This document shows, piece by piece, positions 6,125-41,812 of a DNA stretch of 42,307 nucleotides (position 1 is the stretch's first letter; the number at the start of each line of letters is the position of its first letter). The DNA comes from a bacterium (GTDB lineage Bacteria > Patescibacteriota > Minisyncoccia > Phycocordibacterales > UBA10002), in NCBI GenBank assembly GCA_030649775.1, contig JAUSFR010000077.1:1-42307 (forward strand), written 5' to 3'. The position numbers were made by a program, and so were the translations under genes. The notes under the pieces are model-generated. The model was given only the letters and a program-made list of their open reading frames with translations, was not told where the DNA came from and did not search any database.

Positions 6125-6466
6125 GTGAAGAAAGAAGAAATCGTTAATCTGTGGTTAATTAAAGATACTGTGAAAATAAATATCTTTGGAATGCTGGGTA
6201 TTGTAGGTGTAATAATAATATGGATAGTTTCTTATTTGTTTTCACGAACATTAGATGGTGTTGAGGCGCTTGGATTTGGTGCGCTTCCTCTATTTGCGTC
6301 TTCTCTTTGGATAGCGTCTCTGGTTTTTATTGCGACGGCAATATCACTTAAAGATTTATCTAGACAACAGAATAAATTAGCATTTTTAATCCCACGGGTC
6401 TTTCTGCTTTTAGTGAGTGGTCTCGTAATCCTTAATTTCTGTTTTATAGCTATACGTTATATTTAA
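6125..6466 (+). CDS. hypothetical membrane protein (3-4 TM segments)
   Basis: 113 aa with a GTG start. Markedly AT-rich. Lies directly downstream of the HigBA-like pair. Confidence 0.55.
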   Translation: MKKEEIVNLWLIKDTVKINIFGMLGIVGVIIIWIVSYLFSRTLDGVEALGFGALPLFASSLWIASLVFIATAISLKDLSRQQNKLAFLIPRVFLLLVSGLVILNFCFIAIRYI

Positions 6467-11783: not shown

Positions 11784-11875
11784 GCACTAGGAAGTCAGGC
11801 CCTAGGCTCTAGGGAAGGAATGGCAATTTCGTTCTTTACTTTTTTCCTAGTGCCTAGAGCCTATCGCCTAGAGCC
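11781..11875. repeat. CTAG-type heptamer hairpin element
   Basis: The left arm is TAGGCAC TAGGAAG ... TAGGCTC TAGGGAA. The right arm is CCTAGTG CCTAGAG CCTATCG CCTAGAG. The arms are mutually complementary. Confidence 0.8.
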
Positions 11876-11965: not shown

Positions 11966-12661
11966 ATGGCCATCAGCCTTCAATTTGAAAAGCGGGACCC
12001 GAAAGTGGCCCCCAATACGCTTCGAAACGCGGGGAAAATACCGGCGGTCTTTTATGGTAAGAAACAAGCGTCTACCTCCATCACGCTTTCTGCGCATGAT
12101 TTCGAAAAGGTATGGAAGAAGGCGGGTGAGAACACCATCGTGAGTCTCCAGAACGGCACCGAAGAAGTCCAGGCGCTCATTAATGACGTGGACAAGCATC
12201 CGGTTACCGGAGTGGCACGCCACGCCGACTTTTACGTCTTTGAAAAAGGACAGAAGCTCAAGATTAAAGTGCCGATTGAATTTAAAGGAGTTTCCCCGGC
12301 GGTCAAAGACCTCGGTGGGGTACTGGTCAAAGTGGTACACAACCTTGAAATTGAAGCCGAGCCGAAGAACCTCCCGCAGAAGCTTGAAATTGATATTTCT
12401 CCTCTTGTCGCGTTTGACAGTGTTATTACCGCGAAAGAAATTATTCTCCCCGAGGGAGTTACTCTTGTTATTTCTCCCGACGACGTCATTGCTTCGGTCT
12501 ACGAACCGAAGGAAGAAGTGGTGGAAGAAGTGCCGGTTGACCTCTCGACAATTGAAGTAATGAAGAAAGGCAAAGAAGAGGTTCCGGGTGAAGAAGGCAC
12601 TGCTCCGGCCGAAGGAGGTGCTCCTGCGAAAAAGGAGGAAAAGAAAGAAGCAAAGAAGTAA
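11966..12661 (+). CDS. rplY: 50S ribosomal protein L25 / general stress protein Ctc
   Basis: 231 aa. N-terminal pattern RNAGKIPAVFYGK, a Ctc-type second domain and a Lys/Glu-rich tail. Confidence 0.9.
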   Translation: MAISLQFEKRDPKVAPNTLRNAGKIPAVFYGKKQASTSITLSAHDFEKVWKKAGENTIVSLQNGTEEVQALINDVDKHPVTGVARHADFYVFEKGQKLKIKVPIEFKGVSPAVKDLGGVLVKVVHNLEIEAEPKNLPQKLEIDISPLVAFDSVITAKEIILPEGVTLVISPDDVIASVYEPKEEVVEEVPVDLSTIEVMKKGKEEVPGEEGTAPAEGGAPAKKEEKKEAKK

Positions 12662-12783: not shown

Positions 12784-14139
12784 ATGAAAGCGTCAGCTTT
12801 GCTTTTTTGCGTAGGTATACTCGGCATAGCCGTCGTGGTATTCGTCGTACCTCACCTTGCGCGCGCGCAAAGTGAAGGTGCGGTTGCGAAACGACAAGCT
12901 GAACTTCAAGCCGAACTTGAAGCGACACAAAAGGATATCGCCTACTGGGCGACCATTCTCGCGTCCAAGGAAAAAGAGACGGTCTCCATTTCCCGTGATA
13001 TTGCTATTCTCAACGCGAAGATTGCGGAGGCGAAAGCAACGATTAAGGCAAAGAACATCATCATTCAACAATTGGGAAAGGATATCGGAGAAAAAACGGC
13101 GGTTATCACCTCCCTCAATCAGAAGTTGGAGAAACAAAAAGATTCACTTTCCGGACTTATACGCAAAGCAAATACCATTGAGGCGTATTCGGTTGCCGAG
13201 TTCGCGCTGAGCGGACAAAATTTATCCGGCTTTTTGGGCGACCTTGATGCTATAAGGGCCGTGGAGGGGGCGCTAAAAACCTCGTTTGAGGACATTCGAG
13301 CGACGCGCACCGAGACCGAGACGGTGAAAGAAGCGCTCAACAAACGTCAATCCGCCGAGACCGACGCACGGAAAGCGATAGAAGCGGAACAAAGGCAAAT
13401 CCAAAAGAGTGAAGCCAAGAAGAAAGAACTGCTCGCTATCAGTAAGACCGAGGAGAAAACGTATAAAGGAATCTTGAGTGAACGAGAAAAGAGAGCCGCG
13501 CAAATACGCTCCGCGCTTTTCGCGCTCCGTGACAGTGCGGCAATACCATTCGGCACGGCATACGGATACGCGCTGGAGGTGCAAAAAAAGACAGGGGTGC
13601 GTCCCGCGTTTTTGCTCGCGATACTGACGCAGGAAACCAATCTTGGCGAAAATGTGGGGCAGTGCCTCGTCACCAATTTCACGACCGGAGGCGGGGTGGG
13701 TAAAAATACCGGCACGGCATTCACCACGATTATGAAGCCAGGACGAGACCTCGCGCCGTTTCTCCGTCTCGCAGAGCGTCTCGGTTTTGACCCAAAGCAG
13801 AAACCCGTGTCCTGTCCGCAGAAAGGTGGTTACGGCGGTGCGATGGGGCCGTCACAATTTATCCCGTCAACATGGGTTTCGTTTGAGAAAAGAATTGCCT
13901 CGGCATCGGGGGTGTCCACTCCCGACCCGTGGATTCCGCGCGACGCCTTTTTCGCGTCGGGGATTTATCTTTCGGACCTCGGCGCGGACGCGGGTGGGTA
14001 TTCCGCCGAGTCCACCGCGGCAGCCAAATATTACGCAGGGAGCGCGTGGAAAACCAAGGGGAAGACCTACGCGGGGAATGTGATGTCACACGCGACAAAC
14101 ATACAGGAAAATATGATTGACCCGTTGCAGAATTTGTAG
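12784..14139 (+). CDS. secreted coiled-coil protein with a C-terminal lytic transglycosylase-like domain (MltB/SLT_2-like)
   Basis: 451 aa. N-terminal signal/TM segment, about 230 aa of coiled coil, then LAILTQETNLG (catalytic Glu context) and GAMGPSQFIPSTW. Confidence 0.7.
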   Translation: MKASALLFCVGILGIAVVVFVVPHLARAQSEGAVAKRQAELQAELEATQKDIAYWATILASKEKETVSISRDIAILNAKIAEAKATIKAKNIIIQQLGKDIGEKTAVITSLNQKLEKQKDSLSGLIRKANTIEAYSVAEFALSGQNLSGFLGDLDAIRAVEGALKTSFEDIRATRTETETVKEALNKRQSAETDARKAIEAEQRQIQKSEAKKKELLAISKTEEKTYKGILSEREKRAAQIRSALFALRDSAAIPFGTAYGYALEVQKKTGVRPAFLLAILTQETNLGENVGQCLVTNFTTGGGVGKNTGTAFTTIMKPGRDLAPFLRLAERLGFDPKQKPVSCPQKGGYGGAMGPSQFIPSTWVSFEKRIASASGVSTPDPWIPRDAFFASGIYLSDLGADAGGYSAESTAAAKYYAGSAWKTKGKTYAGNVMSHATNIQENMIDPLQNL

Positions 14140-15077: not shown

Positions 15078-15144
15078 AGGCACTAGGCACTAGGCTTTAG
15101 GCTCTAGGTTTTTCCCTAGTGCCTAGTGCCTAACCCCTAGTGCC
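15078..15144. repeat. CTAG-type heptamer hairpin element
   Basis: AGGCACT AGGCACT AGGCTTT AGGCTCT AGG - TTTTT - CCCTAGTG CCTAGTG CCTAACC CCTAGTG CC. The arms are complementary. Confidence 0.85.
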
Positions 15145-15154
15145 TTTTCTATTT

Positions 15155-17133: not shown

Positions 17134-17760
17134 ATGAGTACAGAAATCACAACGGAGCTCATTAAGCAACTTAGAGACCAAACAGGGGTTTCGGTTATGC
17201 TCTGTCGTAAGGCGCTTGAAGAAGCGAAGGGAGATTTGGAAAAGGCTAAAGTCATCCTTCAGCGAAAAGGGGCGGATGCAGCCGCCAAGAAAGCCGACCG
17301 AACACTTGGTGCGGGTACCATCGCGTCCTATATTCACTTCGGTGGTACGGTGGGCGTGCTCGTGGAGCTCTCTTCGGAGACCGACTTCGTCTCGGGAAAC
17401 GAGGCATTCAAGGCGCTTGCGTACGACATCGCTATGCACATTGCCGCTTCCAAACCGGAGTTTGTGCGTCGGGAGGACATCAGTGCCGAGACACTTGAGC
17501 GAGCTAAAGAAGTACTCTTGAAGGAAGTTGAAGGCCTGCCTGTGCGGGGCACGCAGACAGGCAAACCAAAGGAAATGCAGGAAAAGATTTTGGAAGGGAA
17601 GCTCAATTCCTATTTTGCCGAGAAAATTCTTCTTGAACAGCCGTTTATCAAGAATCCCGACCTCACGGTTCAAGGTCTTATCGCAAGCGCGGTGCAGAAA
17701 TTCGGAGAGAAGATTGAAGTCACCCGGTTTGCGCGGTTTGCCTCGGGTAATCGGTCCTAA
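17134..17760 (+). CDS. tsf: elongation factor Ts (short form)
   Basis: 208 aa. UBA-like N-terminus LIKQLRDQTGVSVMLCRKALEEAKGDLEKA. Confidence 0.9.
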   Translation: MSTEITTELIKQLRDQTGVSVMLCRKALEEAKGDLEKAKVILQRKGADAAAKKADRTLGAGTIASYIHFGGTVGVLVELSSETDFVSGNEAFKALAYDIAMHIAASKPEFVRREDISAETLERAKEVLLKEVEGLPVRGTQTGKPKEMQEKILEGKLNSYFAEKILLEQPFIKNPDLTVQGLIASAVQKFGEKIEVTRFARFASGNRS

Positions 17761-17767
17761 ATAATCT

Positions 17768-18163
17768 ATGTGGTCCATCGCCATATTCGGGGTATCACTC
17801 TTTGGCCTTTCGGCACTGTTTGCCTTTAAGGTGCTTGAGATGACGCGTGACACACAAACACCGCTTCACCACCTTCGGCGCGCCAGCGACCCGCTCATTA
17901 AGAACGGTTGGGAGAAGTGTGTCGGTACCTGCCGGAAATACTCGGTTACCGCTTCGCGCCTGTCCGCTGTGTGGATAAAGACGACGATACATAACGCGCA
18001 CCTCTCGTTTGACCGCTCTTTGCATGCACTCGTGCTTCGGCTCAACCGCTACTTGCGCGGACGACGTACACAGGTGCGTCAAGGCACTACGGATGTGTCA
18101 GTGCATCTCAAGAGTGTGCTTGAGAAGACCGAAGGAGATTCGTCACGCCCCGACTCATTTTAG
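17768..18163 (+). CDS. hypothetical protein with an N-terminal TM segment
   Basis: 131 aa. One N-terminal hydrophobic helix, then a basic region with no recognisable family. Confidence 0.45.
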   Translation: MWSIAIFGVSLFGLSALFAFKVLEMTRDTQTPLHHLRRASDPLIKNGWEKCVGTCRKYSVTASRLSAVWIKTTIHNAHLSFDRSLHALVLRLNRYLRGRRTQVRQGTTDVSVHLKSVLEKTEGDSSRPDSF

Positions 18164-18202
18164 TTTTGACAGGCTTCCTTCCGTCTTATACTCTTGAGCT
18201 GT

Positions 18203-18403
18203 GCCGCCTTAGCTCAGCTAGTACTCGCCCGAACGACTGAAACATATGCCGGTGTAGCTCAGTTGGTAGAGCGCCACTTTTGTAAAGTGGATGTCGTCAG
18301 TTCGAGCCTGACCACCGGCTTTTCATAGGAATCGTTCAGTCGGGCGGGGAGCAACGCATTTGTAATGCGTGGGTCCCCAGTGCAAATCTGGGAGGCGGCT
18401 CCA
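18203..18403 (+). tRNA. tRNA-Thr(UGU)-like gene interrupted in the D-loop by a 125-nt insert (function unknown; possibly a pseudogene or a split tRNA)
   Basis: Acceptor GCCGCCT/AGGCGGC, D-stem GCTC (18212-15) / GAGC (18349-52), anticodon arm ACGCA-TTTGTAA-TGCGT, T-arm CCCAG-TGCAAAT-CTGGG, discriminator T, and CCA encoded. The D-loop (A at position 18) and T-loop (G at position 55) are atypical. Confidence 0.5.
18248..18320 (+). tRNA. tRNA-Thr (anticodon UGU)
   Basis: Canonical 73-nt cloverleaf: GCCGGTG-TA-GCTC-AGTTGGTA-GAGC-G-CCACT-TTTGTAA-AGTGG-ATGTC-GTCAG-TTCGAGC-CTGAC-CACCGGC-T. CCA is not encoded. Confidence 0.88.
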
Positions 18404-18419
18404 TTCAAATTTCTTTGTC

Positions 18420-18439
18420 ATTCCCGCGAAAGCGGGAAT
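18420..18439 (+). terminator. hairpin ATTCCCGC-GAAA-GCGGGAAT after the tRNA locus
   Basis: Perfect 8-bp stem with a GNRA loop and no T-tract. Confidence 0.4.
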
Positions 18440-18492
18440 CCAGTTCTGCAGTGCCGTTCCAAAGAACAATCTTTTGTGCTTAAATAGAGCGC

Positions 18493-19254
18493 ATGGAACG
18501 TAAAGAAACACAGGGACACCTCCACCCCATCTCGCAGGCAATTTTTGATATACGCTCCATTTTTGAGGAGCTCGGCTTCGCGATTGCGGTTGGTCCCGAA
18601 CTTGAAACCGAATGGTACAACTTTGACGCGCTCAATATCCCAAGCGACCATCCTGCACGGGATATGCAGGATACATTCTGGCTGAAACATCCAGAAAGTG
18701 GATTCAAGATTCAAGATTCAAGATTCAGGATGGAGAGAAGTGAGAGACCGGTGCTACGCACGCACACGAGCCCCGTGCAGATACGGTATGTTGAAAACAA
18801 AGTGAAGCTGGGCATTAACCCCCCATACAAAATCGTGGTACCGGGAAAGGTGTTCAGGAACGAAGCCACCGATGCGACACACGAAGCGCAGTTCTTTCAG
18901 CTTGAAGGTTTATATATTGATAAAAACGTAAGTCTTGCGCACCTCAAGGGCACGCTGGAATTCTTTTTGAAGAAGTTTTTCGGTCCAGAAATTGAAATAC
19001 GTTTCCGCCCCAGTTTCTTTGCCTTTACCGAACCCTCCGCCGAAGTGGATATGAAATGGAAAGGCAAATGGCTGGAGGTTCTCGGCTCCGGTCTTATGCA
19101 CCCCAATATCCTTCGCGCTTCAGGCGTTGACCCCAACGAGTATTCTGGCTTCGCGTTCGGATGTGGCATAGACCGCCTCGTCATGCTCAAAACCGGCATC
19201 CCCGACATTCGGATGTTTTACAACGGAGATTTACGTTTAGTGAATCAGTTCTAA
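18493..19254 (+). CDS. pheS: phenylalanine--tRNA ligase alpha subunit (lacks the usual N-terminal domain)
   Basis: 253 aa. HPISQ..., PSDHPARDMQDTFW, LRTHTSPVQIRY and class II motifs. An in-frame stop at 18481-83 excludes a longer N-terminus. Confidence 0.9.
   Translation: MERKETQGHLHPISQAIFDIRSIFEELGFAIAVGPELETEWYNFDALNIPSDHPARDMQDTFWLKHPESGFKIQDSRFRMERSERPVLRTHTSPVQIRYVENKVKLGINPPYKIVVPGKVFRNEATDATHEAQFFQLEGLYIDKNVSLAHLKGTLEFFLKKFFGPEIEIRFRPSFFAFTEPSAEVDMKWKGKWLEVLGSGLMHPNILRASGVDPNEYSGFAFGCGIDRLVMLKTGIPDIRMFYNGDLRLVNQF
18701..18728 (+). repeat. tandem heptamers GATTCAA x3 + GATTCAG inside pheS
   Basis: Read directly from the sequence. Encodes part of SGFKIQDSRFR. Confidence 0.9.
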
Positions 19255-21663: not shown

Positions 21664-21699
21664 ATTACCACATATCAGCGACCGCTGATATGTGGTAAT
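21664..21699. repeat. 36-nt palindrome ATTACCACATATCAGCG-AC-CGCTGATATGTGGTAAT (upstream copy)
   Basis: Perfect 17-bp arms. Ends 8 nt before the ATG at 21708. Confidence 0.9.
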
Positions 21700-21707
21700 A
21701 TTAAAAG

Positions 21708-22307
21708 ATGCGAGCAAGTCAGGTTAGGGGACTAAAGAAGAAAAAAGAACGGAAGAATCGAATTGCCGTAGTGCAAAAAGCAGTACTCTATGCGCTTGTA
21801 GCGGCAGGAGGACTTTCTATGGCTCTGGTCGCACCTAATGCCTTGCGGGTTCTAGAGCAGTTTGGATGGGTGAAGACGAAACGTCCTTTTCGCTTTACCG
21901 TTAGTCGTTCAGTAGAGCGGTTGGAGAAGGCGAGGCTTGTTACTGTGGATAAGAAAGGCTTTATTACATTAACCAAAATCGGTGAGCAGAGGATTTCAGA
22001 AATAGAACGCGCGGATTACCAGCTTTCTATTCCCGAAAAGTGGGATGGAAAGTGGAGGGTAGTCAGTTTTGATATAAAGGAGAAAAGAAAGAAAGTTCGA
22101 GAGTTACTTAGATGGACGCTTCAGAGTGTTGGGTTTGTACATCTCCATCATAGTGTCTGGGTATATCCTCACGACTGCGAAGATTTTCTTTCGCTTCTCA
22201 AGGCGGACTATCATATTGGTGTAGAGATTCTGTACATCATCGCTGAATACATAGAAAATGACGATTGGCTCCGTAGACATTTCGGCCTGAGTGGCAAGAA
22301 GGTCTAA
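21708..22307 (+). CDS. wHTH + PaaX-middle/Cas2-like domain protein (putative DNA-binding regulator or nuclease)
   Basis: 199 aa. Basic N-terminus and wHTH-like region, then WDGKWRVVSFDIKEKRKKVRELLRWTLQSVGFVHLHHSVWVYP (beta-alpha-beta with an Asp after strand 1). Paralog of 34500-35108. Confidence 0.6.
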   Translation: MRASQVRGLKKKKERKNRIAVVQKAVLYALVAAGGLSMALVAPNALRVLEQFGWVKTKRPFRFTVSRSVERLEKARLVTVDKKGFITLTKIGEQRISEIERADYQLSIPEKWDGKWRVVSFDIKEKRKKVRELLRWTLQSVGFVHLHHSVWVYPHDCEDFLSLLKADYHIGVEILYIIAEYIENDDWLRRHFGLSGKKV

Positions 22308-22323
22308 AGGGATACTAGAACGT

Positions 22324-22363
22324 AAATTACCACTTATCAGCGGTCGCTGATAAGTGGTAATTT
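22324..22363. repeat. 40-nt palindrome AAATTACCACTTATCAGCG-GT-CGCTGATAAGTGGTAATTT (downstream copy)
   Basis: Perfect 19-bp arms. The core differs from 21664-21699 only by a symmetric A/T swap and an inverted central dinucleotide. Confidence 0.9.
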
Positions 22364-25316: not shown

Positions 25317-27068
25317 CTATTTCTTTTCCGTAATTTCTTTGAGTAGTCTGGAAGACAGCTCGGTGAGGGGGAGCGTGTCTTTACTGCCAGCTCGGCTCTC
25401 TAGTGTCACGGTTTTGTCGGTCTCTTCTTTGGCTCCGACGACTAGGAAGTACGGGACTTTTTCTATCTTCGCGCTCCGTACTTTTTTGCCGAGTGTTTCG
25501 TTTGACTCATCAAGTTCCGAGCGGACACCGGCATCTACAAGCGATTGGTGGACCGACTTCGCGTAGTCCAAAAACTTCTCTCCTACCGGAAGAATCTTTA
25601 CCTGCACCGGCGAGAGCCAAAGGGGGAACGCGCCGGCGAAGTGTTCAATAATGATAGAGAGATAGCGTTCTATGGAACCCATAATGGCGGCGTGAATCAT
25701 CACCACTCTTTCTTTTGTTCCTGCCTCGTTTGTGAATTCAAGTTCAAATCTCTCCGGCATATTCATATCAAGCTGAATGGTCGCCACCTGCCATTCTCTG
25801 CCGAGTGAATCCTTCGCCATAAAGTCTACCTTTGGTCCGTAGAAAGCTGCCTCACCAAGAGCTTCAATCGCCGTCGCGCCTTTTTCTTTTACCAGTGCGC
25901 GAAGTTCATTCTCCGATTTCTCCCACGTTTCTGTCGTTCCCAAATACTTCTCCATCTGCTTCGGGTCATGGAGGGAAAGTCGGGGGGTGAGGGTAAAGCC
26001 AACGGCTCCGTAAAAAATCTCTATAATGTTCCAAATCTTACCCATTTCTTCCTTTACTTGGTCGGGACGACAAAAGACGTGCGCATCATCCTGGGTAATG
26101 GCGCGTACGCGCGAAAGACCCGAAAGTTCTCCGGTCTGTTCATCGCGGTACACCATCGTCGTGTTTGCATAGCGCTGGGGAAGCTCACGGTAGCTCCACG
26201 CCTTTCGTGCATAGATTTGGGTATGGTGCGGACAGTTCATCGGCTTCATCGCGAACTCGTGTTTCTCGCGCGTGCTCACGCGGAAAAGTTCGTCCTTAAA
26301 CTTCTGCCAGTGGCCACTCTTTTCGTACAGGTCCTTTTTGGTGATATGCGGGATTTCAACCTTCTGATACCCTTCCTTTTTTCGGAGTTCCCACACAAAG
26401 TCGTCCAAAGTGTTTCGGAGCATCGTTCCCTTCGGCGTCCAGAGGGGAAGACCCGCTCCTACCAATTCGGAAAAGGTAAAGAGGTCAAGTTCCTTCCCGA
26501 GCTTTTTATGGTCGCGTTTCTCGGCTTCTGTGCGTTGCGTCACATACGCCTCAAGCTTTTCCTTAGTTTCAAACGCGAGGCCGTAAATGCGGGTGAGCAT
26601 CTTATTTTTTTCATCGCCACGCCAGTACGCTCCCGCGATGCGGTCCAGTTTCCAACCTGCGTTTCGCATTTCTTTCGCGTCGTTCGTGTGCCCGCCACGA
26701 CAAAGGTCGGTAAACGTACCCGAGGTATAGAGCGTGATTTTTTCACCCTTCTCCTCAATGCCATCAATGAGTTCCAGTTTATAGGGATTACCGTCAAACC
26801 GCTTTCGCGCCTCGGCAGGAGTTACTTCTTGCCCCTCAAAGCCTTTCCAGCTTTTTACAATCTCTCGCATCTTGTTCTCAATCGTTCCAAGGTCGGCCTC
26901 ACTCGGGGGGGTGGTGAACTCGCAGTCATAGTAAAAACCGTTATCAATTGAGGGACCCAAGGTGAGCTTGGTATCGGGGTAAAGTTCCAGCACCGCCGCG
27001 GCGAGCAGGTGGGCGAGCGAGTGGCGGATATGAGATAGGTGTTCATTCTCTGACATGGAGGAAATCAT
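25317..27068 (-). CDS. thrS: threonine--tRNA ligase (no TGS domain)
   Basis: 583 aa. Starts at the editing/SAD region HSLAHLLAAAV, and has the class II core and a C-terminal anticodon-binding domain. Confidence 0.93.
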   Translation of the reverse strand: MISSMSENEHLSHIRHSLAHLLAAAVLELYPDTKLTLGPSIDNGFYYDCEFTTPPSEADLGTIENKMREIVKSWKGFEGQEVTPAEARKRFDGNPYKLELIDGIEEKGEKITLYTSGTFTDLCRGGHTNDAKEMRNAGWKLDRIAGAYWRGDEKNKMLTRIYGLAFETKEKLEAYVTQRTEAEKRDHKKLGKELDLFTFSELVGAGLPLWTPKGTMLRNTLDDFVWELRKKEGYQKVEIPHITKKDLYEKSGHWQKFKDELFRVSTREKHEFAMKPMNCPHHTQIYARKAWSYRELPQRYANTTMVYRDEQTGELSGLSRVRAITQDDAHVFCRPDQVKEEMGKIWNIIEIFYGAVGFTLTPRLSLHDPKQMEKYLGTTETWEKSENELRALVKEKGATAIEALGEAAFYGPKVDFMAKDSLGREWQVATIQLDMNMPERFELEFTNEAGTKERVVMIHAAIMGSIERYLSIIIEHFAGAFPLWLSPVQVKILPVGEKFLDYAKSVHQSLVDAGVRSELDESNETLGKKVRSAKIEKVPYFLVVGAKEETDKTVTLESRAGSKDTLPLTELSSRLLKEITEKK

Positions 27069-33569: not shown

Positions 33570-33669
33570 AAAGCTCGAAGGAAAGAAAGCTCTAAGCTCG
33601 AAGAAAAAACTTTTTAAGTTTTAAGACTTAAGAATTCTTCGAACTTCGAACTTCGTGCTTCGAACTTCT
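33570..33669. repeat. heptamer hairpin spacer (GCTCGAA / CTTCGAA type)
   Basis: AAGCTCGAAG occurs at 33571-80 and 33594-603. The opposite arm is TTCTTCG AACTTCG AACTTCG TGCTTCG AACTTCT (33635-69). Confidence 0.7.
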
Positions 33670-33675
33670 GGTTCA

Positions 33676-34371
33676 ATGAGTCCGGACTTTGGCAGTTTCG
33701 AAAAACACCTCGGTATCACCTTTAAGGATAAGAATTTACTCCGCACTGCTTTCACGCACCGCTCGTACCTCAACGAAAACCGAAAAAGTGGGATGGAACA
33801 CAACGAACGTCTTGAGTTCTTGGGAGACGCGGTACTGGAGCTTATCGTGACCGAATATCTGTTCGGAAAATACCCCGACCGAAACGAGGGCGACCTTACC
33901 TCGTACCGCTCCGCGCTCGTCAATGCCGTCACGCTCGCCGGTGTTGCCGAGAAGCTGGGGATGAATGATTTTCTCCTACTCTCTCGCGGAGAAACCAAAG
34001 ACACCGGACGCGCTCGGCAGGTCATTCTCGCGAATACGATTGAAGCGTTCATCGGCGCGCTTTATCTTGATGGTGGGTACGAAGCGACAAAAGGCTTTGT
34101 CAGCAAACATATTTTCAAACTTATTGATGACATTGTGCACAAAAAAACGTGGCTTGACGCGAAGAGTCATTTTCAGGAAAAAGCACAGGAGATTGCGGGC
34201 GTAACGCCCTCTTACGAAACCGTCAAAGCGGACGGACCCGACCACGACAAAAAGTTTACGGTCGCCGTCTTTCTCGGCAAGGAAAAAATCGCCGAAGGAG
34301 AAGGGAAGTCCAAGCAGGAAGCCGAACAGCAAGCGGCAAAGATGGGACTCGAAGCCAAGAATTGGGAGTAG
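33676..34371 (+). CDS. rnc: ribonuclease III
   Basis: 231 aa from MSPDFG. Signature ERLEFLGDAVLEL and a C-terminal dsRBD. Confidence 0.92.
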   Translation: MSPDFGSFEKHLGITFKDKNLLRTAFTHRSYLNENRKSGMEHNERLEFLGDAVLELIVTEYLFGKYPDRNEGDLTSYRSALVNAVTLAGVAEKLGMNDFLLLSRGETKDTGRARQVILANTIEAFIGALYLDGGYEATKGFVSKHIFKLIDDIVHKKTWLDAKSHFQEKAQEIAGVTPSYETVKADGPDHDKKFTVAVFLGKEKIAEGEGKSKQEAEQQAAKMGLEAKNWE

Positions 34372-34451: not shown

Positions 34452-34493
34452 AATTATACCAAGTAGCACCTATCGGTATTACTTGGTATAATT
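34452..34493. repeat. 42-nt imperfect palindrome AATTATACCAAGTAGCACC-TATC-GGTATTACTTGGTATAATT (upstream copy)
   Basis: 19-position arms with 17 Watson-Crick pairs, 1 G-T pair and 1 mismatch. Ends 6 nt before the ATG at 34500. Confidence 0.85.
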
Positions 34494-34499
34494 GGGACT

Positions 34500-35108
34500 A
34501 TGGAGATGTTCCCCAATAAGGAGGCGAAAAAGAAGAAGAGAGGAGTAAAACGAATCTATAGTCCGACAAAGATGAAGATTCTTTTGTTGCTTCAGGCCGG
34601 AGTCGCACTTTCATTTGCGGGCACGCTTTCGAAGCAGTTTCGGATTTTGGGAGAACTTGCGGATGAGTGGAAAGGCGTTGAGCGTGCATACCTCTCGCGG
34701 ATTATCCGGGAGTTTTATACCGACCGGTTGGTTTCCATGACCGAAAATGGGAATGGTACTGTAACTGCCGTACTAACCGAAAAAGGGAAGAAGCGCGCTA
34801 TTACGTTCAATTTAAGCTGTATGGAAGTCAGGGTCCCCGAAGTATGGGATGGACTCTGGCACATGGTAATCTTTGATATTCCCGAAAAATATAAGGTCGC
34901 TCGATATTCTCTCCGTGATAAACTCCTTGCCCTCGGCTTCTTTCAATGTCAGAAGTCGGTCTATATTCACCCATTCTCGTGTGAGGATGAAGTCGATTTC
35001 ATCTCAAACTTTTTTAAAGTAGGACGTTATGTGCGCTACGGCGTCATAAAGCGCATCACCAATGAAGAGGAGCTTCTCCTTAGGTTTAACCTCAAGAAAC
35101 CCATTTAG
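34500..35108 (+). CDS. wHTH + PaaX-middle/Cas2-like domain protein (paralog of 21708-22307)
   Basis: 202 aa. WDGLWHMVIFDIPEKYKVARYSLRDKLLALGFFQCQKSVYIHP, and the shared downstream motif P-x-x-CED. Confidence 0.6.
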   Translation: MEMFPNKEAKKKKRGVKRIYSPTKMKILLLLQAGVALSFAGTLSKQFRILGELADEWKGVERAYLSRIIREFYTDRLVSMTENGNGTVTAVLTEKGKKRAITFNLSCMEVRVPEVWDGLWHMVIFDIPEKYKVARYSLRDKLLALGFFQCQKSVYIHPFSCEDEVDFISNFFKVGRYVRYGVIKRITNEEELLLRFNLKKPI

Positions 35109-35120
35109 CGCATCAATTAT

Positions 35121-35158
35121 TTATTCCAAGTAGCACCTATCGGTGCTACTTGGAATAA
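35121..35158. repeat. 38-nt perfect hairpin/palindrome TTATTCCAAGTAGCACC-TATC-GGTGCTACTTGGAATAA (downstream copy)
   Basis: Perfect 17-bp arms with the same TATC centre. Starts 12 nt after the stop codon. Confidence 0.9.
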
Positions 35159-39787: not shown

Positions 39788-41812
39788 TTACACGAGCCGG
39801 TAGTCCAGTGTTTTTCGCTCCACATCAGCGCCGACAACTTTGAAACGTACTTTATCGCCAAGAGAGTAGCGCTTTTTGGTACGTTCTCCAACCACCGAGT
39901 ACGTTTTTTCATCCAATACATAGTAATCGCCCGTGAGGTCTCGCAGTTTTACCATTCCCTCCGAGCGAGTATCTTTTTCTTCCACATAAATACCCCATTC
40001 GGTTACGCCCGAAATAATACCTTCAAACTCTTTCCCGATACGCTCCTCCATATATTCCACCTGCTTGAGTTTGATGGATTCGCGCTCGGCTTCCGCGGCT
40101 GAAATTTCCCGCTTGGTGGCGTCCGCCGCCATTTTTTCAAGCTGTGCCATTTTCTGTGGGTCTACCTTATGTTTCTCCTGTATTGCAAAAAGCGAACGGT
40201 GTACCAGAAGGTCGGGGTACCGCCTGATAGGTGAGGTGAAATGCGTGTAGTGTTCAAAGGCGAGTCCGAAGTGCCCGATATTCATCGTGGAGTACACGGC
40301 CTTCGCCATACTGCGAATAGCCGCGGTCTTAATGAGCGATTCGGAGGCGTGACCCTGAATTGTATTGAAAAGCGCCTGCAAATCTTTCCCGCTCACACTA
40401 CCGTCTTTCTGCACCGAAAGGTCGTGTCCAAGTGCCCGCACAAAAATGCCGAGCTGTTCCAGCTTTTCGCGGTTCGGCTCGTCGTGGGTGCGGTAAATAA
40501 ACTGAAGTTTACCCCCCGCCTTCATGGCGGTCTTTGAAAAGTGATGGGCGACTTCGCGGTTCGCGAGAAGCATAAACTCTTCAATGAGCTTGTGCGTATC
40601 AAGGCGTTTCTTTTTGTAGACGCGGATAGGGTGTCCCGTCTCATCAAGTTCAAACGCGACTTCGTCCTGTTCAAAATCAATCGCACCCTGCTTTGTTTTC
40701 TCCGCGCGCAGTTTCTTCGCGATGGAGTTCAGCGTGAGCAGAGCCTCGCGAAGTTTTTCCGTAAGAGTCAGACTCTCTCTGCCGAGAGTCTGACTCTTGC
40801 GAAGCGCTTCATCAATGACCTCTTGCGCCGTTTCGTAGGTGAAGCGCATCTGCGAGTGTATGACTCCCTTACCGAACCAGCGGTCGTGGATATGACCCTT
40901 TTCGTCCATTTCAAAGACCGCCGAGAAGGCGAGGCGGTCCACGTTGGGGTTCAGCGAACAGAGGTCGTTTGAAAGCGCGTGGGGAAGCATCGGAATAGTC
41001 CGGTCTACAAGATAGACGGACGTACCACGCGCCCGCGCCTCGCGGTCAAGCGCCGTTCCTTCACGAACATAGTGCGACACATCCGCTATATGAATTCCGA
41101 TTTCATAGTTTCCATTTGTGATTTCGCGAAGCGATAGTGCATCATCAAAATCTTTCGCGTTCGCGGGGTCAATGGTAAAGAGGGTAGTGGTGCGGAAATC
41201 TCGCCGTTTTGCAATCTCATCCGTCGAAATTGGCGAGCCGGTTTCTTTGAGGAGTCTCTGCGCCTCTTCGGCAATTTTTTCTGCCTCGGCTTCAACTTCT
41301 CGGGGGAAAGCATTCTCAAATCCGCGTTCAAGAATGATGGACTCCATTTCCACCTCGTGCTCACCCTTTTTGCCAATGACTTTGAGTATCTCACCCGTGG
41401 GCTCGCTACCGTCTTTCCACTCCCGTATTTCAACCAAAGCTTTGTATCCCTTCTGCGCTTCTCGCGGAGGGCGAGGTATGACTATCTTTGCGTACATCCG
41501 AAAGTCATCTGGCACGAGGAGAAGCCTAGTTCCACTCTCCTCAATCGTCCCGACAAAGCGCATTTTGGCGCGAGTGATAATCCGCACTACCTTTCCCGTC
41601 CGTCTTCCTCGCACTTTCTCTTTGAGTACCTCCACCTCTACTTCGTCACGGTTAAGCGCCGTGTGGAGATTCGGCGTTTCAATCATAATATCCTCTTTGT
41701 GCTTTTCGTCCTCAATAAAGCCCACGGCTCGCGAGTTCACGCTCAAAACACCCGCAATCGTGGAGCTAGGATGCTTTTCCTTGGTTTGTATAGACGAATA
41801 CTTGTTTTTCAC
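39788..41812 (-). CDS. rnr: ribonuclease R (RNB-family 3'-5' exoribonuclease)
   Basis: 674 aa. RNB motif TIDPANAKDFDDALSL and a C-terminal S1 domain GIISGVTEWGIYVE. Confidence 0.92.
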   Translation of the reverse strand: MKNKYSSIQTKEKHPSSTIAGVLSVNSRAVGFIEDEKHKEDIMIETPNLHTALNRDEVEVEVLKEKVRGRRTGKVVRIITRAKMRFVGTIEESGTRLLLVPDDFRMYAKIVIPRPPREAQKGYKALVEIREWKDGSEPTGEILKVIGKKGEHEVEMESIILERGFENAFPREVEAEAEKIAEEAQRLLKETGSPISTDEIAKRRDFRTTTLFTIDPANAKDFDDALSLREITNGNYEIGIHIADVSHYVREGTALDREARARGTSVYLVDRTIPMLPHALSNDLCSLNPNVDRLAFSAVFEMDEKGHIHDRWFGKGVIHSQMRFTYETAQEVIDEALRKSQTLGRESLTLTEKLREALLTLNSIAKKLRAEKTKQGAIDFEQDEVAFELDETGHPIRVYKKKRLDTHKLIEEFMLLANREVAHHFSKTAMKAGGKLQFIYRTHDEPNREKLEQLGIFVRALGHDLSVQKDGSVSGKDLQALFNTIQGHASESLIKTAAIRSMAKAVYSTMNIGHFGLAFEHYTHFTSPIRRYPDLLVHRSLFAIQEKHKVDPQKMAQLEKMAADATKREISAAEAERESIKLKQVEYMEERIGKEFEGIISGVTEWGIYVEEKDTRSEGMVKLRDLTGDYYVLDEKTYSVVGERTKKRYSLGDKVRFKVVGADVERKTLDYRLV

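Follow-up and report, generated by a model that had tools for sequence, protein, structure and literature searches.

A complete gene for a threonine transfer RNA with the anticodon UGU, tRNA-Thr(UGU), was found within the D-loop of a second tRNA-Thr(UGU) gene at positions 18203–18403 of contig JAUSFR010000077.1 (GenBank assembly GCA_030649775.1), whose full 42,307 nt are hereafter called the window. The outer gene is probably a pseudogene that was split by an insertion and functionally replaced by the inner tRNA carried on the insert, and its most likely present state is that of a dead relic. The relatives of the neighbouring PheS protein all belong to the Patescibacteria/Paceibacteria, for example Taylorbacteria and Kaiserbacteria, and the source genome is that of a Paceibacteria bacterium (Patescibacteria, candidate phyla radiation, CPR).

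CPR bacteria with small genomes usually possess one gene per tRNA species, and replacing such a gene is therefore risky. The locus appears to preserve an intermediate of this replacement, in which the old gene is recognisable on both sides and the newcomer would use the old promoter. Together with the decayed versions detected in relatives, the locus suggests a concrete route for the xenologous replacement of an essential tRNA gene.

Architecture of the nested tRNA-Thr locus

All coordinates of the nested locus were verified. When the intact 42-kb window was scanned with ARAGORN, the sole call was the inner tRNA-Thr(tgt) at 18248–18320, and the intron modes applied to the unspliced region returned this tRNA alone; it also scores 70.1 bits with the Rfam tRNA family RF00005 and thus exceeds the gathering score of 29. 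After in silico excision of 18224–18348, ARAGORN called a 76-nt tRNA-Thr(tgt) composed of 18203–18223 and 18349–18403, with all 21 pairs of the four stems Watson–Crick and the terminal CCA encoded. The 3′ part of the outer gene alone reaches 26.4 bits and remains under the gathering score. An earlier description of this stretch, made from the letters alone and hereafter called the sequence-only reading, had drawn the outer gene as one tRNA folding around a skipped 125-nt block and the inner gene as a canonical 73-nt tRNA-Thr(UGU); both drawings hold, coordinates included. Gene finders for tRNA will miss or miscount nested relics of this kind.

The two flanks of the inner tRNA pair with each other. 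The helix consists of 6 bp (18224–18229 with 18343–18348, one pair being G-U) and 8 bp (CGACTGAA at 18234–18241 with TTCAGTCG at 18335–18342), separated by a 4-nt bulge, CGAA (18230–18233), and it reaches both junctions of the insert. The duplex energy is −21.8 kcal/mol, a value reached by 16 of 5000 shuffled flank pairs, and the flanks of real tRNA genes in relatives have a median duplex energy of −4.7. The pairing proposed in the sequence-only reading is thus real, but its drawing as 12 bp is better replaced by the form given here. An alternative fold of the 3′ arm, seen in the Rfam alignment, is a pseudo-D-arm GTTC-AGTCGGGCGGG-GAGC. The whole 201 nt folds with z = −4.4, and the outer acceptor stem and the inner cloverleaf are both formed.

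Resident position and signs of decay of the outer gene

The locus was compared with 80 related genome loci (numbered with the letter L, as are the other contigs cited), and tRNA-Thr(UGU) was located upstream of pheS in 35 of them. The outer acceptor stem GCCGCCT and T stem CCCAG match those of L006 (89% identity to the spliced outer gene), L019 and L043, as well as those of the close relatives L082, L087, L090 and L099, whose PheS proteins are 80–93% identical to that of the window. An uninterrupted gene of the outer type occurs upstream of pheS as a single copy in distant and close relatives alike, and its leader and trailer can be aligned with those that flank the outer gene. Matching stems and aligning flanks identify the outer gene as native to this site, the resident of the syntenic position between an open reading frame (ORF) of 131 codons, ORF131, and pheS. 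Alignment across relatives, which had been suggested as a check on a simple pseudogene, therefore gave the pattern expected of one, with an uninterrupted gene at the site in relatives and a decayed outer gene here.

The signs of decay lie in the loops. G18 and T55 are invariant in 43 of 43 genes of relatives, and the outer gene has A18 (18220) and G55 (18382, in the T-loop TGCAAAT); both substitutions had been pointed out in the sequence-only reading. A third private change, which that reading did not mention, is C16 at 18218, where at least 90% of the relatives have T. A clade profile was built from 43 distinct tRNA-Thr(UGU) genes of relatives, with which the spliced outer gene scores 65.5 bits, the inner gene 68.1 bits and the outer gene with its three loop changes reverted 76.3 bits. 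The outer halves thus score as a tRNA once the insert is removed, contrary to the failure that had been named as a possible refutation. The inner tRNA shows zero violations of the columns conserved in at least 90% of the 43 relatives, G18, G19, T54, T55 and C56 included; its sole exception is the missing encoded CCA, which is absent also in L090, L099 and L087.

Of the properties of a functional tRNA, the outer gene retains the stems and the anticodon loop but has lost the G18/U55 elbow. It also carries the 125-nt insert at 21|22, for which no known removal pathway is recognisable (no group I core and no bulge-helix-bulge, BHB, motif), and it is not conserved among the relatives that share the insertion, since the outer 3′ half is missing from L083, L084, L085 and L098.

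These observations bear on the possibility that the outer gene works as an interrupted or split tRNA. In that case the inner tRNA would be excised by RNase P and RNase Z, and the outer halves would be held together by the acceptor stem, the D-stem and the 14-bp helix as a second tRNA-Thr(UGU); in a variant, RNase III may also cut the outer halves, as in the intervening sequences of ribosomal RNA (rRNA). The intact outer stems and anticodon loop, the encoded CCA and the favourable fold of the 201 nt are compatible with such a product, the private changes strike the interacting pair G18/U55 and no stem, and an RNase III gene lies in the window. However, the anticodon is shared with the inner tRNA, so that nothing would be gained, and both bases of the elbow are lost although they are invariant in the relatives. 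L083 lacks the outer 3′ half and keeps the inner tRNA, and relics of the same kind are decaying in L082, L087 and L072. Rfam detected no group I intron core. In a BHB motif, 3-nt bulges lie 4 bp apart at the splice sites; here the two junctions face each other directly at the foot of the helix, the sole bulge is CGAA on one strand, and consequently no BHB motif is formed. We know of no working two-piece tRNA without ligation in bacteria. A split tRNA, the second option in the sequence-only reading, is therefore very improbable, its main obstacles being the common anticodon, the lost G18 and U55 and its dispensability in L083. More generally, cloverleaf-compatible halves around an insert should not be taken as a split tRNA unless the invariant positions and the relatives have been checked.

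Probable foreign origin of the inner gene

A metagenome scan for the inner T-arm and acceptor stem returned four contigs. The only native tRNA that precedes pheS in L097 is identical at 72 of 73 positions and includes CCA, and the PheS protein there is only 65% identical to that of the window. L095 and L096 carry a 73/73-identical tRNA in another context, and the inner tRNA is likewise 73/73 identical in L083–85. Much closer genomes (PheS 80–93%) carry stems of the outer type rather than the inner type. The distant match, combined with the outer-type stems of closer genomes, indicates that the inner gene is probably a xenolog; at the least, it represents an allele of a distant lineage. Inner positions 8–48 are identical to the intact tRNA of L082 and L099. 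The inner gene has no encoded CCA and is therefore not a retro-copy of a mature tRNA. The inner tRNA was not found in viral contigs.

Two ORFs with nuclease similarity were observed near pheS in related contigs. A 56-aa remnant of an HNH endonuclease (Pfam HNH, 21.5 bits) lies directly upstream of the inner-type tRNA in L097 (6946–7116). In L094 (2–283; PheS 88%), a nuclease-like ORF with a weak match to Phage_endo_I (E = 0.067) lies upstream of pheS, with no tRNA between the two, and the contig ends within this ORF. They give a hint of endonuclease activity at the locus, and nothing more.

A palindromic hairpin element at the insertion

The arms that enclose the inner tRNA recur outside the window. 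In L082 and L083, a related 38-nt hairpin is inserted between relic positions 9 and 10. It shares its base with the window arms (CCCGCC, the CGAA bulge, CG...CG and GGCGGG), and its apical stem, ACCGA/TCGGT versus CTGAA/TTCAG in the window, is different and still paired, that is, compensated. A scan of viral contigs with a 17-nt pattern taken from the window 5′ arm gave three hits. In L112, a Mu-like phage contig, a 4-nt loop is followed by exactly the 3′ arm of the window with the same unpaired bulge, and a second, slightly decayed copy of the hairpin lies 6 kb from the first. In L122, a phage contig of 41% GC with a capsid gene, the same arms enclose a 5-nt loop with a shorter apical stem (12837–12872). 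The invariant hairpin base of the viral hits was imposed by the search pattern, and only the apical identity is independent evidence. Taken together, the arms appear to be a discrete, recognisable palindromic hairpin element. Small palindromic hairpins of this type, which also occur in phage-like contigs, are thereby indicated as possible agents or hotspots of tRNA replacement.

The two hairpins of L112 (~12240–12300 and ~6140–6200, minus strand) are each preceded by a second palindrome, CCCCTCCCCTCTAGGGGAGGG, and one of the copies lies inside a transposase reading frame. Each of the three insertions in the relic comes after TA and before G, a context that the viral copies lack.

Several further candidates were rejected. 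A total of 120 viral pattern hits considered as cargo-bearing copies showed no arm pairing or tRNA and are chance matches; viral hits to the L082-type arm had no 3′ arm and were likewise attributed to chance, and the hits in L123 and L125, with only 3–5 apical pairs, may be chance as well. BLAST of the hairpin against PLSDB plasmids and INPHARED phages returned no real match, and no Rfam family was detected around the viral hairpins or in the L082 intergenic region. By inspection, the hairpin fits neither the K-turn nor the integron attC consensus. The 5′ arm was also considered as a copy of the 3′ end of ORF131; the sequence concerned, CCCGCCCGAA, also ends ORF131 in L099 and L082, and the match is probably coincidental because the same hairpin occurs in phage contigs and only 10 nt agree.

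Relatives that share the event

The 5′ junction of the window, GTA|CCCGCCCGAACGACTGAA, is also present in L083, L084, L085 and L098 (PheS 87–88%), which derive from at least three separate assemblies. In these loci the 5′ relic GTCGCCTTA is followed by the 38-nt hairpin, GCTCAGTGGTA, the arm CCCGCCCGAACGACTGAA, a spacer, the identical inner tRNA and, at once, the native trailer. No 3′ arm and no outer 3′ half were found within the 3.7–6 kb examined. The 5′ arm of L083 matches that of the window at 17 of 18 positions. At four-fold sites, the window is only 45–57% identical to L082 or L083; against the match of the arm, this low value therefore points to recent exchange of the locus or to some constraint.

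Alternatively, the outer halves may have ceased to be a tRNA and be retained for their RNA structure: they could hold the inner pre-tRNA like a clamp and present it for processing, or provide the pheS message with a signal for its processing or stability. The intact stems beside changed elbow loops, the position of tRNA-Thr directly upstream of pheS across the Paceibacteria, and the 17/18 arm next to flanking genes with only about 50% identity at four-fold sites could all be accommodated in this way. But L083 is without the 3′ arm and the 3′ half of the outer gene, and any relic is absent from L099 and L090, which leaves no general role for the structure; recent transfer of the locus explains the conserved arm equally. 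We regard a structural role as improbable.

L082 (PheS 93%) contains the same relic, including the ACGCA...GGGTC of the outer gene; deletions and the 38-nt hairpin interrupt it, and an intact tRNA follows downstream of this decayed relic. L087 is similar. L090 and L099 possess one intact tRNA only and no relic. Three contigs from three samples, L099, L100 and L101, encode identical PheS proteins and have three different upstream structures (in the first 100–200 nt): one with ORF131 and a tRNA, one with a duplicated box resembling the pheS start and a tRNA, and the remaining one with no tRNA within 94 nt upstream of pheS. From these sequences, the locus appears to be structurally polymorphic within a population.

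A purely local origin was considered in this context. Old tandem paralogues could have been rearranged by duplication, inversion or template switching at palindromes, with no horizontal transfer or mobile element. The decayed upstream and intact downstream copies of L082 and L087, the near-identical tandem copies of L038 and the identity of inner positions 8–48 with the intact tRNA of L082 and L099 would suit this explanation, and the three architectures found with identical PheS in L099, L100 and L101 imply that the locus rearranges often. On the other hand, the two halves of the outer gene meet exactly at 21|22, which is the expected result of a simple insertion and would seldom follow from two independent deletions. 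The inner acceptor and T stems match the distant L097 and L095 and not the sister genomes, and the same hairpin arms occur in unrelated phage contigs. A local rearrangement alone is thus unlikely.

The same polymorphism raises the question of an assembly chimera, in which the tRNA-Thr alleles of coexisting strains were misjoined in a metagenome-assembled contig. The only other assembly with the exact PheS, L081 (a Logan contig from SRR13727527), starts about 15 nt after the outer CCA (~18418); a break at the nested locus in an independent assembly is consistent with strain variation or repeats there. A look-up with ORF131 gave no second assembly, and the 3′ junction was seen only in the window. 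Against a chimera, any sequence common to the outer gene and the insert is limited at both junctions to ~10 nt, too little to misdirect a k-mer assembler; the 5′ junction recurs independently in a related organism, in at least three separate assemblies; and the arms not only pair with each other but also correspond to hairpins at other sites. A chimeric contig is extremely improbable.

Proposed insertion and functional replacement

We propose the following course of events for the split and replaced resident gene. A 125-bp cassette was inserted between D-loop position 21 and D-stem position 22 of the native gene. The cassette consists of the palindromic hairpin (6 bp, CGAA bulge and 8 bp) with a tRNA-Thr(UGU) in its apical loop, the tRNA being of a type native to more distant Paceibacteria. 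It may have arrived as a mobile palindromic element with cargo, or through a break at the hairpin or D-arm that was repaired with foreign DNA. The composite would be transcribed from the promoter of the outer gene, and the inner tRNA, presumably freed by RNase P, 3′ trimming and CCA addition, would then perform the decoding. The outer halves would be discarded as by-products without tRNA function, and their decay would have begun with G18A, U55G and U16C. The insertion would kill the resident gene yet supply a working copy, and it would therefore be tolerated and hard to lose. Both genes have the same anticodon, so the outer gene adds no decoding capacity, and its 3′ half is dispensable, having been deleted in L083 with the inner tRNA kept at 73/73.

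The sequence-only reading had left three options for the locus. The first, an insertion-inactivated pseudogene replaced by the incoming copy, is the one favoured here by the intact gene in relatives, the loss of two invariant bases and the deletion of the 3′ half in L083; the second was the split tRNA rejected above. The third placed the locus within a theme of genes inserted in hairpin loops elsewhere in the window, and it holds in one particular sense: the arms do belong to a recognisable palindromic hairpin that is found elsewhere with a short loop.

Several points weigh against insertion and replacement. The complete nested arrangement was seen once only, in the window itself, and look-ups with PheS and ORF131 found no independent assembly of the 3′ junction 18348|18349. 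The outer gene retains an intact anticodon loop and every one of its 21 stem pairs, and the three private substitutions all fall in the D- and T-loops, for which chance gives (15/73)^3, about 1%, in a post hoc calculation. Intact stems with changes in loops only are unusual for random decay and leave room for a very recent insertion or residual constraint. The architectures of the locus do not follow the PheS tree. An order of events for L082, L083, L087 and the window was attempted and failed; the conflict between architectures and PheS identities means that the order is not reconstructable, and recombination between lineages at the locus is likely from the sequences compared. Apart from this locus, neither the 42-kb window nor ~0.6 Mb of related loci contains a further copy of the hairpin. 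The insert (flanks GTA| and |GAG) shows no target-site duplication, the neighbouring genes scanned included no recognisable transposase, integrase or nuclease, and elsewhere no hairpin copy with cargo was detected. Mobility is therefore no more than a possibility.

A stronger form of the proposal is that the 125-bp unit is a selfish 'replace and addict' cassette, a hairpin with a tRNA-Thr(UGU) that inserts into the D-arm of the single tRNA-Thr(UGU) gene of its host. This is a speculative idea and rather unlikely. If it were true, the resident copy would be killed and replaced, the host could not lose the cassette, and the relics in L026, L038, L071, L072, L082, L083 and L087 would be older traces of the same process.

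Recurrence in other Paceibacteria

A profile search of all related loci detected further tRNA-Thr fragments beside intact genes. In L072 (1–230), a resident gene of the outer type is kept only from the anticodon stem onward, with CTTG lost from the anticodon loop; ~100 nt upstream of this relic stands a complete tRNA-Thr(UGU) of another type (GCCGGAA). The related L043 (3400–3720) has the same resident gene intact with the same trailer. Judged from these two sequences, L072 may be a second case of nesting or replacement.

In the three divergent Paceibacteria L026 (779–898), L038 (926–1030) and L071 (60–215), a tRNA-Thr-like copy is interrupted right after the D-stem (GAG). The insert is an 11-bp hairpin, TT(N9)-YGGGR-(N9)AA, followed by AG(T/A)TTTGTAA, and at 6 of its 11 pairs the genomes differ in both bases, pairing being preserved throughout. 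This compensated pattern would fit either a second palindromic family that targets tRNA-Thr or a conserved structured RNA. Copies or fragments of tRNA-Thr disrupted by hairpins are present in L026, L038, L053 and L071, with an intact copy alongside in L026 and L038, and a palindrome-disrupted tRNA-Thr beside an intact copy appears to be a recurring state in the group.

Comparison with known systems

The nearest printed parallel that we found is archaeal. At the tRNA-Thr(GGU) locus of Caldiarchaeum subterraneum, a tRNA-Thr is reported to be disrupted by an integrating element, and the population to be heterogeneous (PMC3293823).

As with integrating elements in tRNA genes generally, genomic islands and integrative plasmids among them, the resident tRNA in the window is broken, the incoming DNA restores a working tRNA with the same identity, and a remnant of the old gene persists next to the new one. 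The differences are considerable: the insert of 125 bp has no recombinase and contains a whole tRNA rather than regenerating a hybrid, it lies in the D-loop and not in the 3′ half or anticodon region, both old halves remain around it, and it has inverted instead of direct repeats, with no direct repeats of the tRNA flanking it. The neighbours (EF-Ts, ORF131, PheS, an HXXEE protein and PheT) include no integrase, as an integrative element would require.

The hairpin resembles repetitive extragenic palindromes (REP) and their REPIN forms, miniature inverted-repeat transposable elements and Rickettsia palindromic elements in being short, with inverted-repeat arms, a variable apex and compensated changes in the arms. 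The window-type hairpin is also found in unrelated genomes, inside a reading frame in L112, and can thus land in genes, and Rickettsia palindromic elements also occur in RNA genes. Unlike these families, however, it shows no multi-copy dispersal in the genome sample, no target duplication and no associated transposase. We know of no described palindromic element whose loop contains a complete tRNA gene.

The geometry, with a gene enclosed by a long stem and the insert projecting as a helix from a structured RNA gene, also recalls the intervening sequences and processing stems of rRNA. Such sequences are removed by RNase III, which is encoded in the window, and leave the rRNA fragmented but functional. 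In the window, by contrast, the host is a tRNA with a disturbed D-loop/T-loop elbow and lost invariant bases, the bulged 14-bp helix is on the short side for an RNase III substrate, and nothing indicates functional fragments.

Archaeal non-canonical introns and split or permuted tRNAs share with the locus an interruption outside the anticodon loop and complementary flanks. They differ in that the present host is a bacterium, that no bulge-helix-bulge is formed, and that the insert is a complete tRNA of the same anticodon; the scanned ORFs of the window contain ordinary bacterial domains only, with neither a splicing endonuclease nor an RNA ligase among them. Group I introns of bacteria also interrupt tRNA genes, but they lie in the anticodon loop, possess a catalytic core (P3–P7) and measure roughly 200 nt or more. 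The insert lies in the D-loop, is too short at 125 nt and has no core detectable by Rfam. Group I and BHB introns, riboswitches and other Rfam families were all rejected, as 17500–19000 gave tRNA hits only (E up to 10).

The sequence-only reading had stated that no such bacterial arrangement was described, and our literature search agrees: the open-access text searched contained no report of a tRNA nested in the D-loop of an isoacceptor, nor of such a hairpin sequence.

Features of the locus and of the window

The gene order is RF1, S2, EF-Ts, ORF131, the tRNA locus, pheS, the HXXEE protein gene, pheT, a PaaX-like gene and gyrB. The features of the tRNA locus are listed in Table 1. The promoter scan took only spacers of 16–18 nt, so that the near-consensus promoter-like site with a 15-nt spacer was not listed and was read by eye; similar boxes precede the single tRNA in L102 (TTGACA-16-TATATT) and L090 (TTGACC-17-TACCCT).

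Table 1. Features of the nested tRNA-Thr locus, from the putative promoter to the start of pheS (window positions)
Feature	Position	Strand	Basis and remarks
Promoter-like TTGACA-15 nt-TATACT	18166–18192	+	Read by eye; ~10 nt before outer G1; putative function
Outer tRNA-Thr(UGU), positions 1–21	18203–18223	+	Acceptor 5′ strand, U8 A9, D-stem 5′ strand, D-loop AGCTAGTA (C16, A18)
Palindromic hairpin, 5′ arm CTCGCC-CGAA-CGACTGAA	18224–18241	+	Duplex energy; matches in L083, L112 and L122
Spacer ACATAT, inner tRNA 5′ leader	18242–18247	+	Counterpart in L083: CAAGTAAATAT
Inner tRNA-Thr(UGU), canonical, no encoded CCA	18248–18320	+	ARAGORN, Rfam; putative functional xenolog
Spacer TTTCATAGGAATCG, inner tRNA 3′ trailer	18321–18334	+	Sequence reading
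Palindromic hairpin, 3′ arm TTCAGTCG-GGCGGG	18335–18348	+	Identical 3′ arm in L112 and L122
Outer tRNA-Thr(UGU), positions 22–76	18349–18403	+	D-stem 3′ strand, intact anticodon arm, variable loop, T-arm, acceptor 3′ strand, U73, CCA
Trailer hairpin ATTCCCGC-GAAA-GCGGGAAT	18420–18439	+	3′ of outer CCA, native trailer; hairpin of different sequence at the same place in relatives
Conserved box TTTTGTGCTTAAATAGAGCG	18472–18491	+	Directly before pheS ATG (18493); kept in all close relatives (alignment); native 3′ boundary of the locus

In the close relatives L082 (2880–3000), L083 (2885–3000) and L086 (135–253), a hairpin of ~110 nt (CTCCCGTTAGAAGTCGCGGACGC ... GTCCGCGTCCTACTTCTAACGGGA) separates the box TTTTGTGCTTAAATAGAGCG from the ATG of pheS. 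The window lacks this hairpin, and its ATG directly follows the box (18472–18495), which suggests that the pheS message may be leaderless or have a very short leader.

The window also encodes threonyl-tRNA synthetase (25317–27068, minus strand), RNase III (33655–34371, plus strand) and RNase R (39788–41812, minus strand). An inverted repeat at 40514/40909 lies within the RNase R gene and shows no sign of insertion.

Two genes with a PaaX_M domain (21708–22307 and 34500–35108) are each bracketed by near-identical palindromes of 36–42 bp that are gene-specific and perfect or nearly so (21664–21699 and 22324–22363 for the first gene, 34452–34493 and 35121–35158 for the second). They look like operator sites or cassette boundaries, and these pairs may be what the sequence-only reading perceived as genes between hairpins. 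Palindromes based on AGGCNCTAGGCTCTAGG occur at 2606–2680, 11797–11869 and 15078–15145, at or near gene boundaries, and look like a REP-like or terminator-like repeat family of the genome.

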